From positions 4,481 through 68,480 of the forward strand of contig JAFSUW010000003.1 in NCBI GenBank assembly GCA_017450465.1: 64,000 nt of DNA, in the 5' to 3' direction. A program made the position numbers and the translations under genes. Under the pieces are notes generated by a model, which saw only the letters and a list, made by a program, of their open reading frames with translations, was not told the origin of the DNA and did no database searches. This stretch comes from Clostridia bacterium (GTDB lineage: Bacteria > Bacillota > Clostridia > TANB77 > RGIG9151). This document shows, one piece after another, positions 7,298 through 28,607 of the stretch (positions are counted from its first letter, which is position 1; every line of letters begins with the position of its first letter).

Positions 7298-7326
7298 ATA
7301 ATATCACATTTATAATTTTATGTCAA
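7298..7326 (-). promoter_or_regulatory. near-consensus sigma-A promoter: TTGACA, 17-nt spacer, TGaTATTAT
   Basis: Read on the minus strand. Shares the 15-mer TTTAGTTGACATAAA with the promoter at 28544-28572. Confidence 0.5.
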
Positions 7327-7600
7327 CTAAATAAAGGAATAAAAAAACTATAAACACTATATATAGTATTTATAGTTTTAAAAGTTTAATAATTCCAAAA
7401 CGACATCAGCTAATTTATCGTTTTGTGAGGCAAGTAAATCTTTAAAATTTTCTTGCACCTTATTTTTTAAGTTTTTTAATATACTACGCGTTTCCATGTA
7501 GTCAAGATTAAGGTAAAACATAATTTTCATTCCTTTCCATAGTCTACATAATTATTATCGGCAAAAATTATGGTAAACTTAATAGTTTTTGCATAAGAAT

Positions 7601-7629
7601 TTGATTATTTTTCACTAAAATGATACAAT
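7601..7629 (+). promoter_or_regulatory. ligA promoter: TTGATT, 17-nt spacer, TACAAT
   Basis: Read from sequence. The -10 box overlaps the ATG at 7620 of the six-frame ORF, so the real start is downstream. Confidence 0.45.
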
Positions 7630-7652
7630 ATACAGTAAAAGGGGGAGTTTTT

Positions 7653-9632
7653 TTGGACGCAAAAAAACGTATTGAAGAGCTTAGAGAAAAAATTAGATAT
7701 CATGCAAATTTGTATTATAACCAAGATGCACCGGAAATATCTGATTTTGAATATGATATGTTGCTTTTGGAATTGAAAAATCTTGAAAAAATGAATCCTG
7801 ATTTGGTCGAAAAAGATTCACCAACGCAAATGGTTATAGGGGACGTAAAAGAGGGCTTTGCTGAAGTTACGCATAACATTCCTATGCTTAGCCTTCAAGA
7901 TGTTTTTGATAAAGAAGCAATTTATAGTTTTGTAGATAAAATATCTGAAACATTAAATAGAACAGATTTATTTTATACAGTAGAAACCAAAATTGATGGA
8001 TTATCTGTATCACTTGAATATAAAAAGGGTAAACTTGTTCGCGCATCAACGCGTGGAAATGGAACTGTTGGCGAAGATATAACTGAAAATGCAAAAGTAA
8101 TAAAAACTATTCCACACACGCTTACTGAACCGATAGATATTGAAGTGCGCGGTGAAGTGTTCATACCAAATGATGATTTTATAAAATTAAATGAGGAGCG
8201 TGAACTTTTAGGATTACCTTTGTTTGCTAATCCGAGAAATGCAGCAGCAGGATCTTTAAGACAACTAGACCCAAAAATAGTTGCAGAGCGTAAACTTGAT
8301 ATTTATATTTTTAACATTCAAAAATGTGAAAAAACATTTACTTCTCATAAAGAATCATTAGATTATGCAAAAAAACTTGGCTTAAATGTTGTGCCTATTT
8401 GTACTAAGGTATCAACTGCGCAAGAAATTGAGAGAGAAATAGATAATATAGATGCAAAAAGAAACACATATAGTTTTGGAATTGATGGTGCTGTAATTAA
8501 GTTAGATGATATAGCACTACGTGAACAACTTGGTACAACAGCCAAAACGCCAAAGTGGGCTATTGCATATAAATATCCGCCTGAGAAAAAAGAAACCAAA
8601 ATATTAGATATAAAAATTCAGGTAGGTAGAACAGGTGCTTTAACGCCAGTTGCAGAGTTAAAAACAGTAACTCTTGCTGGTACTAATGTATCAAGAGCAA
8701 CCTTGCACAACGAAGATTATATAAAGCAAAAAGATATTCGAATTGGCGACACTGTATTGGTTCAAAAAGCAGGTGAAATAATTCCTGAAGTCGTAGAAGT
8801 AGTAAAAGAAAAAAGAAATGGTTCAGAAAAAGAGTATTCTATGCCAACCAAATGTCCTGTTTGTGGTAGCGATGTTGAACGTGAAGAAAAAGAAGCAGTA
8901 ATAAGGTGTACCGGTATAGAATGTCCAGCAAGATTATTTAGGAGTATCGTTCATTTTGCTTCACGAGATGCAATGGATATTGATGGACTAGGTCCTGCAC
9001 TTGTAGAGCAGATGCTTGATAAAGGTTTAATTCATAATATTGCAGACTTATATTACATTAAACAAGAACAAATTGCAGATTTAGAAAAAATGGGAGAAAA
9101 GTCGGCCAATAATTTAATTACTGCAATACAAAATAGCAAGCAAAACACATTAGATAAACTTTTGTTTGGCCTTGGAATTCGTCATATTGGTAAAAAAGGT
9201 GGAGTATTAATAGCCCAAAAGTTTAAGGATATAGATGAAATAATTAATGCCAAAGCTGAAGATTTTACTGAAATAAATGAAGTAGGCGTTAAAATGGGCG
9301 AAAGCATTGTAAAATACTTTAATAATCCTCAAGTGATTGATACCATAAATAAATTAAAAGCAGTTGGTGTTAATACAAAAGGAATGAAAAAAGAAATAAT
9401 TGACGATAGATTTAATAACATGATATTTGTACTTACCGGTACGTTACCAACATATACAAGAGATGAGGCACAAAAAATAATTGAAGATTTTGGTGGTAAA
9501 ACATCATCAAGTGTTTCAAAAAAGACGACATATGTATTAGCGGGAGAAGAAGCAGGAAGTAAACTTCAAAAAGCACTTGATTTAGGTATAACAATTATAG
9601 ATGAGAATGAATTTAAAAAGATGATAGGATAG
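7653..9632 (+). CDS. ligA: NAD-dependent DNA ligase LigA
   Basis: Adenylation domain KIDG ([10 protein letters not shown]), OB fold, Zn finger [26 protein letters not shown], HhH and BRCT. Probable TTG start at 7653 behind a GGGGGAG RBS. The N-terminus [17 protein letters not shown] aligns with the E. coli LigA start. Confidence 0.85.
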
Positions 9633-9641
9633 GGAGAATTT

Positions 9642-10751
9642 ATGAAAAAAATACTTATTTTAACCTCATACGTTACAGGCCATGGCCATAAAAGTATAAC
9701 AAATGCTCTTGAAAAGGCACTAGATACGCATTCTGATATCGAATATAAATCAGTAGAAGCATTTGAATTTGCGGGAAAAACTGGCGTAAGAATTGGTAAA
9801 TTATATGCGCCAATTATTAGAACTTCCGAAGATATGTGGAAGCTTATCTATAAAGTGTCTGCAAAAGGGCCAAATGCTGTAAGACGTACAGTAAGACAGC
9901 TTATGCGCCACAAATTTTATAAACTCATCGATGAGTATAAACCAGATTTAGTAGTGTCCGATCATCCGGCTTTTGTTAGTGCTGTTATTGATTTACTTCG
10001 CATGAAGAAATTAAAAATACCATTTGCGGTAGTAGTTGCAGATTTAATATCTCTTTCACCATTATGGATTGATACAAGAACCGATTTACTTATTGTGCCA
10101 ACTAAAGAAGCAAGTATTTATGCACAAAAACTTGGTATGCTAGAAAAACGTATAAGGGTTATTAATTTACCTGTTAGAAAAGAAATAGTTGATGTAGCAA
10201 AAGGAATTACAAATATTGATGAAGAGTATATAAAAAATAAGAAAGATATCAAATTCCTTGTTATGAGTGGTGGAGAAGGTTCTGGCGATATGGCTGATAT
10301 AGTGAATAAACTGCTTAAAGTAGAAAATGCCAAAATTTCTGTTATAGCCGGTAGAAATAAGAAAATGAAAGAAGGGCTTGAAGAAGAATTTAAGGATAAC
10401 CTAGACAGAATAACGGTTTATGGTTTTGTCGAGGATATGGGTTCTTTATTAAAAGCACAAGATATAGCAATAGTTCGTGGTAGTCCAAATGTACTTATGG
10501 AATGTGTAAGTTGTACTTTGCCAGTTGTTATTACTGGTACATTACCAGGACAAGAAGAGGGCAATATTGACTTTATATTAGGAAATAATTTAGGTGTTTT
10601 ATGGCATAAGAAAAATAGTTTTTCTATGATTATTAAAGATTTATTAAAAGATGACCGAAAAAAACTTATAGAGTTAAAGAAAAATGAGTTTAATTTTAGG
10701 GATTTATCTGCAGCAGAAAAAATAGCAGATGAACTTTCTAATATGTTATAA
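9642..10751 (+). CDS. MGDG-synthase/UgtP-like diacylglycerol glycosyltransferase (GT28 family)
   Basis: N-terminus ILILTSYVTGHGHKSI resembles UgtP/MGDG synthase. C-terminal GT-B half present. About 369 aa. Confidence 0.55.
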   Translation: MKKILILTSYVTGHGHKSITNALEKALDTHSDIEYKSVEAFEFAGKTGVRIGKLYAPIIRTSEDMWKLIYKVSAKGPNAVRRTVRQLMRHKFYKLIDEYKPDLVVSDHPAFVSAVIDLLRMKKLKIPFAVVVADLISLSPLWIDTRTDLLIVPTKEASIYAQKLGMLEKRIRVINLPVRKEIVDVAKGITNIDEEYIKNKKDIKFLVMSGGEGSGDMADIVNKLLKVENAKISVIAGRNKKMKEGLEEEFKDNLDRITVYGFVEDMGSLLKAQDIAIVRGSPNVLMECVSCTLPVVITGTLPGQEEGNIDFILGNNLGVLWHKKNSFSMIIKDLLKDDRKKLIELKKNEFNFRDLSAAEKIADELSNML

Positions 10752-10812
10752 TATTGCACGTTTACATAAAATATGGTAAAATATATAAAAATGTAAAGGA
10801 GGGGGAGATACT

Positions 10813-27397: not shown

Positions 27398-27530
27398 TTT
27401 GCGCCTCCTTCTATCGTTTTTCGCAAAATTTTTATTTTGCGCAATTAGGAATATACAAAAACAAGGATAAATTTACTACTACCACTACTGCTATCAATGA
27501 AAAAATATATTTTAGAAAGGATCGGTAATT

Positions 27531-27959
27531 ATGCAAAAAATAAATTTTAAAATAATTTTTATATTTTCCTTACTTATAATTATCGGCTTTTGTATAGTTT
27601 TTTATTATATTGAACTTGCAAATACTATAATTATAACTAAGGATAATTATATAGAAATTTTGCGTAATTGTCACGATAACATCGATGATTTTGTTGGCAA
27701 AAAAATTGTTGTTTCAGGTTATGTCTACTTGCAAGACAATTTTAGTTTTAATCATTTTGTTATTGCCAAAAATTTAGTTGTAATGCCTGGAGGTGAACCA
27801 TATGTTGTAGGTTTTTTATGTGAAAATTTGACTGACTACTCCTTCTACTCTAACGATACCATAAGAATTAAAGGAAAAATAGTTAAAGGAAACTTTAACG
27901 GTATTGATTACCCTATTATACAGTTTAAAAATTTTGAATTTGTGCCATATAAAACATGA
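27531..27959 (+). CDS. small membrane-anchored hypothetical protein
   Basis: N-terminal TM (IIFIFSLLIIIGFCIVFYYI) then an approximately 110-aa soluble domain. Confidence 0.4.
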   Translation: MQKINFKIIFIFSLLIIIGFCIVFYYIELANTIIITKDNYIEILRNCHDNIDDFVGKKIVVSGYVYLQDNFSFNHFVIAKNLVVMPGGEPYVVGFLCENLTDYSFYSNDTIRIKGKIVKGNFNGIDYPIIQFKNFEFVPYKT

Positions 27960-28012
27960 TTTAAAAGAAAAAAAGCGGATAGAATGCAAATTCTATCCAC
28001 TCGGCAAAAGAT

Positions 28013-28480
28013 TCATGAAAAATCTCGTCTATTAAACTGGATCCCGCAGCGTACGTTTGTGTGTGACCCGATGAAGTCGTTGAATATTATGTTGCAATGT
28101 CTACTGCATTTATCACACACGCCTTTTGGAAGTTCCTTCATCGAAACCAGCGCCTTGAAATACATGTTTACCGAATCGTCGTCTTGGTTTACGAACTTAA
28201 AATCGTGAGGGTCAATTACTCTGTTAAATATTGCACCAGAATAGTTACAAACAACATCTTTCTTACCCGCAATGTAGCTTAAGTACAGCTGATTTTTTCT
28301 GGTATCCTTAGCAATATTTACTCGTACACTTATTTCTTTATTACGCGGGCATACTAAATTGTTTACCGCTGAAAGTCGTTCTCCTGTCCACTCATGCCAT
28401 TCGTTGCAAAAAGGACAAAGCCATTTTACTGGCCTTAGCTTTGATAGTTTTCTGAACATAATGTCTCCTTTTTTGTACAT
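28013..28480 (-). CDS. hypothetical Cys-rich (zinc-ribbon-like) 155-aa protein; 3' half has raised GC; monocistronic cassette
   Basis: CPFC...C and CDKCSRHC clusters. AAAGGAG RBS, own consensus promoter and terminator. Confidence 0.45.
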   Translation of the reverse strand: MYKKGDIMFRKLSKLRPVKWLCPFCNEWHEWTGERLSAVNNLVCPRNKEISVRVNIAKDTRKNQLYLSYIAGKKDVVCNYSGAIFNRVIDPHDFKFVNQDDDSVNMYFKALVSMKELPKGVCDKCSRHCNIIFNDFIGSHTNVRCGIQFNRRDFS

Positions 28481-28543
28481 AGGTGTTTTATACGACCTTG
28501 GGTTTTAAGTTTGCCAATATGTTCATCAAAATGAACAGAATGA

Positions 28544-28572
28544 ATTATATCACCAAAATATATTTATGTCAA
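28544..28572 (-). promoter_or_regulatory. consensus sigma-A promoter TTGACA, 17-nt spacer, TGaTATAAT
   Basis: Read on minus strand. Contains the same 15-mer TTTAGTTGACATAAA as 7317-7331. Confidence 0.55.
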
Positions 28573-28607
28573 CTAAAGAAAAAGGGCGATTATTACTCGC
28601 CCCTGTA

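Follow-up and report, generated by a model that had tools for sequence, protein, structure and literature searches.

Near-consensus extended -10 promoters of similar sequence ahead of dispersed, compositionally deviant single-gene units in a Clostridia bacterium

Background

A 64,000-nucleotide stretch of contig JAFSUW010000003.1 (positions 4,481 to 68,480 of the forward strand) from the metagenome-assembled genome GCA_017450465.1 of an uncultured Clostridia bacterium, referred to here as the window, carries a set of housekeeping genes (ligA, recD2, cysS, an AI-2E transporter gene, HU and a tRNA gene) among which solitary genes of markedly deviant base composition are dispersed. Two of these genes, c1 and c3, are preceded by promoters (P1 and P2) that contain an identical 15-mer, TTTAGTTGACATAAA, and a third gene, c2, is preceded by a promoter of similar type. 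A preliminary description of this DNA regarded the genes as foreign cassettes with promoters of common origin or with a shared regulator site, and raised recombinational insertion of promoter-containing cassettes as one possibility. We examined the composition, coding status and relatives of these genes and weighed the origins that would account for the likeness of their promoters. A further 8.8 kb of this contig, on the left side of the window (L097), was included, bringing the total for this genome to 72.8 kb.

Results

Promoters P1 and P2

The elements common to the c1 and c3 promoters are as follows.

7317-7331, minus strand: first exact copy of the 15-mer TTTAGTTGACATAAA, comprising the -35 hexamer, five bases upstream and four downstream
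28563-28577, minus strand: second exact copy of TTTAGTTGACATAAA
7298-7326, minus strand: promoter P1 of c1, sigma-A type with extended -10 (TTGACA, 17 nt, TGaTATTAT; 11 of 12 positions match the consensus)
28544-28572, minus strand: promoter P2 of c3, extended -10 (TTGACA, 17 nt, TGaTATAAT; 12 of 12)

The identical 15-mer had been correctly placed at both loci, and the match is exact and on the minus strand in each case. The architecture TTGACA-17-TGaTATAAT had been assigned to both promoters as well; the TTGACA, the 17-nt spacer and the TGa occur at both, but the -10 hexamer of P1 is TATTAT, so that the -35 elements score 6/6 at both and the -10 elements 5/6 (P1) and 6/6 (P2, TATAAT). The two promoters also have GTGATAT in common in the same register, and are identical at 28 of 38 positions from -40 to -3. 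TTGACA occurs 19 times in the window and is followed by a good -10 element at 16-18 nt only in P1 and P2, and a ranking of the TG-extended promoters of the window puts those of c1, c2 and c3 in the first three places.

In all of these elements, together with a strong Shine-Dalgarno leader, P1 and P2 resemble the sigma-70/sigma-A promoters with extended -10 (TGn) of the Firmicutes, but they lie far nearer to the consensus than the housekeeping promoters of the window (TTGACT/TATACT for the tRNA, TTGATT/TACAAT for ligA, non-consensus for HU) and have additional identical flanks. Judged by sequence, P1 and P2 very likely work as strong sigma-A promoters, each serving an orphan single-gene unit of deviant composition. 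Ribosome-binding sites of the AGGAG type are present at both genes as described (GAGGAGG for c1, AAGGAGA for c3), whereas the 5' untranslated regions (UTRs), previously put at about 50 nt, come to about 64 nt (c1) and 78 nt (c3) if transcription starts about 7 nt after the -10 element, the position on which these lengths rest. The c3 gene, first delimited as 28013-28480, most likely begins at 28459, because AAGGAGA precedes that ATG and a related species has no upstream ATG.

Composition and coding status of the single-gene units

The units comprise the following features, in which GC denotes G+C content, GC3 its value at third codon positions and aa amino acids.

6457-7227, minus strand: c1, 256-aa orphan-family protein; GC 0.44, GC3 0.59, third-position C 0.40
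7228-7291, minus strand: c1 5' UTR (about 64 nt, inferred) with a stem-loop at 7246-7282 (z = -3.5), GGACGT and the GAGGAGG ribosome-binding site
6425-6443, minus strand: c1 intrinsic terminator, CCCCAGGcaaccCCTGGGG and T-run, at the end of the GC-rich block
7344-7379, minus strand: terminator-like 18-bp palindrome and T-run closing a 47-aa open reading frame (ORF; 7378-7521), just upstream of P1
14150-14178, plus strand: c2 promoter, TTTACA, 17 nt, TGgTATAAT, surrounded by TTTACTTTACATAAT, which matches the 15-mer at 12/15 positions
14218-14294, plus strand: c2 leader hairpin (z = -4.4) with two copies of GGACGTTTAA, where the GC-rich block begins
14305-15075, plus strand: c2, 256-aa acidic, Pro-rich membrane protein; GC 0.57, GC3 0.69
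15090-15111: c2 terminator
28013-28459, minus strand: c3, 148-aa Cys-rich orphan protein; GC3 0.40
28460-28537, minus strand: c3 5' UTR (about 78 nt, inferred) with a 5' hairpin TGTTCAT/ATGAACA and the AAGGAGA ribosome-binding site
28496-28517, minus strand: leader motif TTGGCAaacttaaaacCCAAGG in the c3 5' UTR, common to modules left of the window
28579-28602, minus strand: terminator of the upstream AI-2E transporter gene, GGGCGA-loop-TCGCCC-TTTTT, ending 2 nt before the 15-mer
51901-52365, plus strand: c4, a fourth GC3-elevated solitary orphan gene of 154 aa; GC3 0.50; preceded by an AGGAGG ribosome-binding site of its own
just past the c4 stop codon, plus strand: putative c4 terminator, a GC-rich inverted repeat AAAAGGCACTcc / GGAGTGCCTTTT

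Each of c1, c2 and c3 consists of one ORF with its own promoter, structured leader, strong ribosome-binding site and intrinsic terminator, and each lies directly behind the terminator of the preceding gene. The promoter of c2 is indeed related to the other two, as had been noted. The c4 gene was found by a scan of all ORFs, was absent from the preliminary description and is not preceded by a consensus promoter of the P1/P2 type. The compositional anomaly claimed for the cassettes is real and resides mainly in the third codon position, where c1 to c4 reach 0.59, 0.69, 0.40 and 0.50 compared with about 0.19-0.21 in neighbouring genes; cassette GC, at that position above all, exceeds the local level by a factor of 2 to 3.5. 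The GC-rich blocks are sharp-edged and run from the early part of the leader, about 50 nt (c1) or 75 nt (c2) downstream of the -35 element through the terminator, and the promoters themselves lie in AT-rich DNA.

On the evidence of substitution patterns and homologues, c1-c4 are genuine protein-coding genes of orphan, lineage-restricted families; the NCBI names are those of hypothetical proteins (IJS47_00240, IJS47_00320). The coding status of c3 and c4 is confirmed by their substitution patterns, since c3 and an 82%-identical homologue differ by 55 synonymous-only and 27 non-synonymous codon changes (20, 15 and 68 by codon position), and c4 and a 64%-identical homologue (L094) by 51 synonymous and 52 non-synonymous changes (48, 25 and 86). 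For c1, it is confirmed by remote full-length homologues and a confident AlphaFold2 model (mean predicted local distance difference test, pLDDT, 93; alignment from the HMMER family). Only one close homologue of c1 exists among 5.8 billion proteins, and an exhaustive HMMER search yielded 15 proteins at E <= 0.001, namely its own cluster representative and 14 remote homologues (23-30% identity, about 255-265 aa), almost all of them full-length. Comparison of the c1 model with PDB and BFVD by Foldseek gave nothing below E = 0.001, a weak resemblance of the predicted fold to Pur-alpha being the lone hint, and the c3 model (pLDDT 37) is unusable. No family in Pfam, NCBIfam, PHROG (E <= 0.001) or PADLOC matched c1-c4, the values for c2 against PHROG being just 0.024 and 0.06; IMG/VR holds no relative of c1 or c4, and none of c1 was found in JGI metagenomes, INPHARED or PLSDB.

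Structured RNA was considered as an alternative content of the GC-rich blocks and rejected, Rfam being silent apart from one match downstream of c2 while substitution patterns and homologues support coding. That match is a TwoAYGGAY RNA (RF01731) at 15240-15381 on the plus strand, between the c2 terminator and recD2, which scores 48.5 bits compared with a gathering score of 43. Several metagenome contigs stop about 120-170 nt past c2. The L094 homologue of c4 is preceded by the 3' end of an apparent second copy, and the family may be tandemly duplicated in that relative.

Conservation of the units among assemblies and species

The cassettes, flanks and promoters are identical across several independent metagenome assemblies from different samples, and are therefore not chimeras or assembly artefacts. 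In a related species (AI-2E transporter 87.5% identical, c3 82%), c3 is flanked by the same two genes and preceded by TTTGGTTGACATAAA, a 14/15 match to the 15-mer, and TGcTATAAT; the leader is conserved and the spacer varies more, the pattern usual for conserved promoters, and the GC3 excess is kept (0.285 versus 0.09 in the flank, compared with 0.40 versus 0.21 here). A 59%-identical c1 homologue on a 1.4-kb contig of GCA_016648615.1 likewise follows a small ORF. Because c3 in a relative has the same neighbours and a 14/15 motif, and the c1 homologue the same kind of upstream ORF, the cassettes are, as far as these comparisons indicate, not recent insertions, and their arrangement is old enough to be common to sister species. 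A LigA-based scan of species representatives returned 80 loci, the best 72% identical, at which gene order is lost and homologues of c1, c2 and c4 are absent.

A wider set of promoter and leader modules

Three further modules of promoter, leader and GC3-elevated ORF occur in the added flank.

left of the window (L097), module a: TTGACATAAAtttagctctaTGaTATAAT; ORF GC3 0.33
left of the window (L097), module b: cCGACATAATtagcctttgatTGtATAAT; ORF GC3 0.275
left of the window (L097), module c: TTGACATAATgaacatacaaTGaTATAAT; ORF GC3 0.45-0.44

These adjoin an IS200-like Y1 transposase gene flanked by CCACCCG...CGGGTGG hairpins. The region occupies L097 3914-7640, that is, 1.2-4.9 kb left of the window start, with the transposase gene followed by the three tandem modules; these head genes for WG-repeat proteins and a YkuD L,D-transpeptidase, all of raised GC3. 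The leaders of a, b and c are homologous and contain GGAAAGGAATTGGCG-N8-CGCCAAGG, and c3 has ATTGGCA-N10-CCAAGG at the corresponding place, giving ATTGGCR-N8-11-CCAAGG as the shared leader form. A profile built from a, b and c only found the c3 module as its best non-training match in 1.43 Mb (E = 0.004), and the reciprocal c3 search matched module a (E = 0.023). JGI metagenomes hold no copy of the leader motif. There is modest evidence, from these sequence matches, that the promoter-leader segments of a, b, c and c3 share descent.

A degenerate pattern, TT[GT]ACATAA-N9-12-TGnTAT[AT]AT, occurs five times in the 72.8 kb of this genome and six times in 1.35 Mb of relatives (Poisson P about 2e-5), although it was defined after the sites had been seen, so that this and the following statistics are inflated and their p-values optimistic. 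Promoters of the type TTKACATAA-TGnTATWAT are thus about 15 times denser here, and all five precede GC3-elevated solitary genes; no housekeeping operon in the 72.8 kb carries the motif, whereas its occurrence ahead of many housekeeping genes had been named as the observation that would reduce the 15-mer to a local consensus promoter. The clade shows a corresponding tendency among TG-extended near-consensus promoters, expressed as the median ratio of downstream ORF GC3 to the locus median.

with TAA after the -35 element (n = 12): median GC3 ratio 2.3
without TAA (n = 33): median GC3 ratio 1.06

The difference has optimistic Mann-Whitney p-values of 0.001 overall and 0.03 in relatives only, and strong promoters of the clade are also generally enriched for GC3-elevated ORFs. 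Small solitary GC3-elevated ORFs stand behind near-consensus TG-extended promoters in the relatives L033 (7963-8571, minus; directly upstream of ligA) and L062 (8684-9034, plus), with further cases in L048 (around 12873, plus) and L068 (3577-3888, plus). The pairing of a strong promoter with a GC-rich orphan in other species makes it a clade-wide one.

Palindromic repeat and other features

A GC-rich palindromic repeat occurs in two full copies in the window.

5334-5404: copy A, lying about 1 kb from c1 where two genes converge
51691-51767: copy B, arms about 30 nt long; upstream of c4 at a distance of about 130 nt; loop TTTGCTTTACATAAA

The arm, TTGTCAGAAGGGACGGGGGCAAyTGACCAC, is inverted around loops with TTATGTA(A/G)A (folding z = -8 to -13). 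Half copies lie left of the window at L097 4785-4820 and 5870-5905, and the first ORF after the Y1 transposase gene is apparently truncated by one. Three GC3-elevated genes have the repeat 20-130 nt ahead of them, and at least one assembly breaks off there; no copy was found in relatives or in IMG/VR. It may be an element like the repetitive extragenic palindromes (REP) or the miniature inverted-repeat transposable elements (MITE), with a Y1 transposase gene nearby. The loop of copy B matches the 15-mer at 12/15 positions and was considered as a promoter copy for c4, but was dropped since it belongs to this unrelated repeat.

The hexamer GGACGT occurs ten times in the window, four of them in the 5' leaders of c1 (7252, minus), c2 (14229 and 14274, plus) and c4 (51870, plus). 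AGGACGT lies 9-11 nt upstream of AGGAGG in c1 and c4. In c1 and c2 the hexamer contributes to the stems of the leader. It may act at the RNA level, for instance as a protein-binding site of the GGA type, or be a coincidence.

A replication terminus near 28 kb is suggested by a change there in both GC skew and gene orientation. Beside this switch, about 1.2 kb from the second copy of the 15-mer, lies the gene of a XerC/D-like tyrosine recombinase (26420-27397, minus strand). Direct repeats at 60165-60598 and 62520-62953 (2355-nt spacing, 71-76% identity) fall in the adjacent minus-strand ORFs 59678-62020 and 62024-63997, which look like tandem paralogous genes.

Discussion

Proposed moron-like accessory units with a related promoter module

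A moron is a phage-borne single ORF with its own promoter and terminator and a deviant composition, inserted between neighbouring genes (PMC4378225). The units described here consist likewise of one ORF with its own sigma-70-type promoter and intrinsic terminator, placed between unrelated genes and unlike them in composition, and we therefore use the label moron-like. They differ from phage morons in lying among chromosomal housekeeping genes with no prophage, in being GC-richer rather than AT-richer than the host, in being common to sister species, in the related promoter or leader of several of them and in having no relatives in the phage and plasmid collections searched (IMG/VR for c1 and c4, INPHARED and PLSDB for c1). 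From the sequence comparisons we give about even weight to the reading that these are moron-like chromosomal accessory units sharing a related promoter or promoter-leader module. Under this reading, accessory genes would have been acquired or propagated with a related promoter segment, or recombined onto one, and autonomous transcription between unrelated operons would keep each segment close to the sigma-A consensus.

The common origin originally proposed for the promoters gains from the enrichment of the pattern and from the profile match to c3, and several observations weigh against it and against acquisition. Nothing beyond the 15-mer and GTGATAT is similar between the P1 and P2 loci, their spacers and leaders being different, and the c1 leader has no significant similarity to that of any other module. 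Modules a, b and c head apparent tandem WG-repeat paralogues (b clearly and c weakly by Pfam, a by eye), so that local duplication accounts for their likeness to one another and only the weaker link to c3 is non-trivial. The degenerate pattern was a post hoc one, and an identical 34-nt pattern occurs in one unrelated IMG/VR phage (two contigs), so that convergence is able to produce it. The protein encoded by c1 is host-like in amino-acid make-up (FYMINK residues 0.39 and GARP residues 0.15, equal to background) and GC-rich at synonymous sites (third-position C 0.40 compared with 0.09; NNC fraction 0.73 compared with 0.21), which fits poorly with simple import from a GC-rich donor. Finally, the comparison of cassette flanks for shared boundary sequence gave no boundary repeats, target duplications or att-like sites, and no recombinase is tied to the cassettes; together with the age of the arrangement, this leaves the suggestion of recombinational cassette insertion unsupported.

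Possible convergence and chance

That two unrelated promoters sit at the sigma-A consensus, with the nine flanking bases agreeing through AT-richness of the sequence, is a possible but doubtful explanation. The preliminary description had put the chance of a 15/15 match at about 1e-3, an estimate that does not hold in that form because about 38 exact 15-mer pairs are expected in the window from second-order Markov simulations (129 were observed, both strands considered). The TTT at the upstream end of the 15-mer continues the terminator T-run at both loci, the downstream bases belong to an AT-rich spacer, and the related species has G for A at one flank position, a base that is consequently not strictly constrained. 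Since nothing else is common to the two loci, the P1-P2 pair leaves room for convergence, which the phage sequence shows to be capable of such a pattern.

Taken as a match between promoters, the 15-mer is nevertheless unusual, and this explanation is opposed by the behaviour of promoters in the clade. A position matrix from 154 near-consensus promoter-like sites (about 1.4 Mb of the clade) shows no preference for the TTTAG and TAAA flanks. In the 3003 pairs formed by 78 clade promoters that have an exact TTGACA, the other -35 runs of at least 15 nt are almost all of orthologous or stable-RNA type, and extrapolation of the background decay gives about 3e-4 per pair for a 15-nt run across the -35 element of unrelated promoters. 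The 28/38 identity of P1 and P2 is among the top few percent of promoter pairs, which are mostly orthologous. The promoter type is, moreover, 15 times denser in this genome and tracks GC3-elevated genes in other species too. The likeness of P1 and P2 is thus probably not accidental.

Possible GC enrichment in place

Another alternative opposes only the acquisition step of the moron-like reading and holds that the genes are not foreign, their GC3 excess having been made in place by mRNA selection or GC-biased gene conversion, which we regard as unlikely. It would account for the host-like amino acids of c1 beside its C-rich third positions, for a GC-rich block co-extensive with the transcribed region, UTR and terminator included, for the persistence of the GC3 excess in both c3 lineages and for the clade-wide association of strong promoters with GC3. 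An increase of GC3 through GC-biased gene conversion has been reported for bacterial genes that recombine (PMC4450053), but the effect seen here is larger and sharper than that reported in bacteria. HU (0.21) and frr (0.225) have normal GC3 despite classic high expression, and c2 looks foreign at all codon positions, with foreign-type amino acids (GARP 0.28) and first- and second-position GC typical of a genome of about 57% GC. The four genes also differ widely in GC3, as would be expected of different donors or ages.

A possible shared operator

The suggestion of a shared regulator site takes the form of an operator in the -35 surroundings, in the leader element TTGGCR-N8-YGCCAA or in both, bound by one regulator of dispersed accessory genes. 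The identity does extend past the hexamer contacted by RNA polymerase, five promoters carry ACATAA and TGATAT, a comparison of modules a and c reveals one compensatory pair change in the inverted repeat of the leader, and GTTGACATAAAT is kept in the promoter of the c3 homologue while the spacer varies. We nevertheless hold such an operator to be improbable: the dyad of the 15-mer is weak (TTTA/TAAA), none of the cassettes has a linked regulator gene, c1 and c2 lack the leader repeat, and an intergenic identity of about 80% would by itself lead one to expect as much promoter conservation as the related species shows.

A possible dedicated expression cassette

A bolder idea, to which we attach little probability, is that this clade of AT-rich gut Clostridia has a dedicated expression cassette design, in which a conserved near-consensus promoter or leader module goes together with enrichment of the entire transcript in GC, at synonymous sites and in the UTR as well. 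The GC enrichment of c1 over host-like amino acids would point to an active process and not to ordinary horizontal transfer. One candidate process is capture or recoding behind a mobile promoter module, perhaps by way of the palindromic repeat or the Y1 transposase; strong mRNA-level selection against AU-rich transcripts may be another.

Site-specific recombination and known mobile systems

Integron gene cassettes and the pdif modules of Acinetobacter plasmids, the latter mobilised by Xer recombination, are single-gene accessory units of deviant composition. The units here differ from both in being dispersed, each with its own promoter, and in having no attC, paired dif-like site or linked integrase. 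An integron origin was rejected, as the cassettes are spread over 45 kb, the tyrosine recombinase is XerC/D-like with integron-integrase models far below cut-off, and the 3' hairpins are plain terminators.

It is highly improbable that the 15-mer is an Xer/dif half-site, its reverse complement TTATGTCAACT acting as XerD arm and the cassettes being mobilised like pdif modules. TTATGTCAACT matches the Bacillus subtilis XerD arm, TTATGTAAACT, at 10/11 positions. It also matches the Frankia arm TTATGTCAAGT at 10/11 (PMC3025954), and the second copy of the 15-mer lies at the switch of GC skew and orientation close to the XerC/D-like recombinase gene. Neither site, however, has a XerC arm or the inner palindrome (ATAA...TTATG), TTATGTNAANT is not enriched (three found, 4.1 expected), the related species has not kept the would-be centre and XerC arm, and no cassette has a second site on its far side; the reading was rejected on these grounds. 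The window has no canonical dif site, the best match to that of B. subtilis being 20/28 and away from the 15-mers. We give almost no credence to an invertible promoter, in which an imperfect 28-nt inverted repeat (22/28; 7318-7345 / 7524-7551) that has the 47-aa ORF with its terminator between its arms and overlaps the 15-mer and the -35 element of P1 could flip the enclosed segment, and dropped it, because all seven independent assemblies have the same orientation (319-320/320 identity; inverted variant in 0/7), the repeat is marginally beyond chance and flanks the small ORF without enclosing the promoter, no invertase is nearby and nothing comparable to the repeat exists at P2.

Neisseria Correia elements and other MITE-like repeats are dispersed short repeats that supply promoter elements to adjacent genes. 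The module proposed in the moron-like reading resembles them as a short, repeated, promoter-supplying segment with multiple copies per genome, but it has no terminal inverted repeats or target duplications, and its copies are few and diverged. The GC-rich palindromic repeat is distinct from the promoter module, though near some cassettes.

Conclusions

Should P1 and P2 have converged on the sigma-A consensus, they would be an ordinary pair of strong promoters. If, instead, the promoter module travels with GC-rich orphans or is recruited to them, it would provide a sequence handle on accessory genes, probably with strong expression, of AT-rich gut Clostridia that have not been cultured. The mismatch between the c1 protein and its synonymous sites bears on how codon composition is shaped, whether by amelioration, selection or biased conversion. 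If the reading preferred here is true, moron-like units would be a chromosomal phenomenon too, extending beyond phages.

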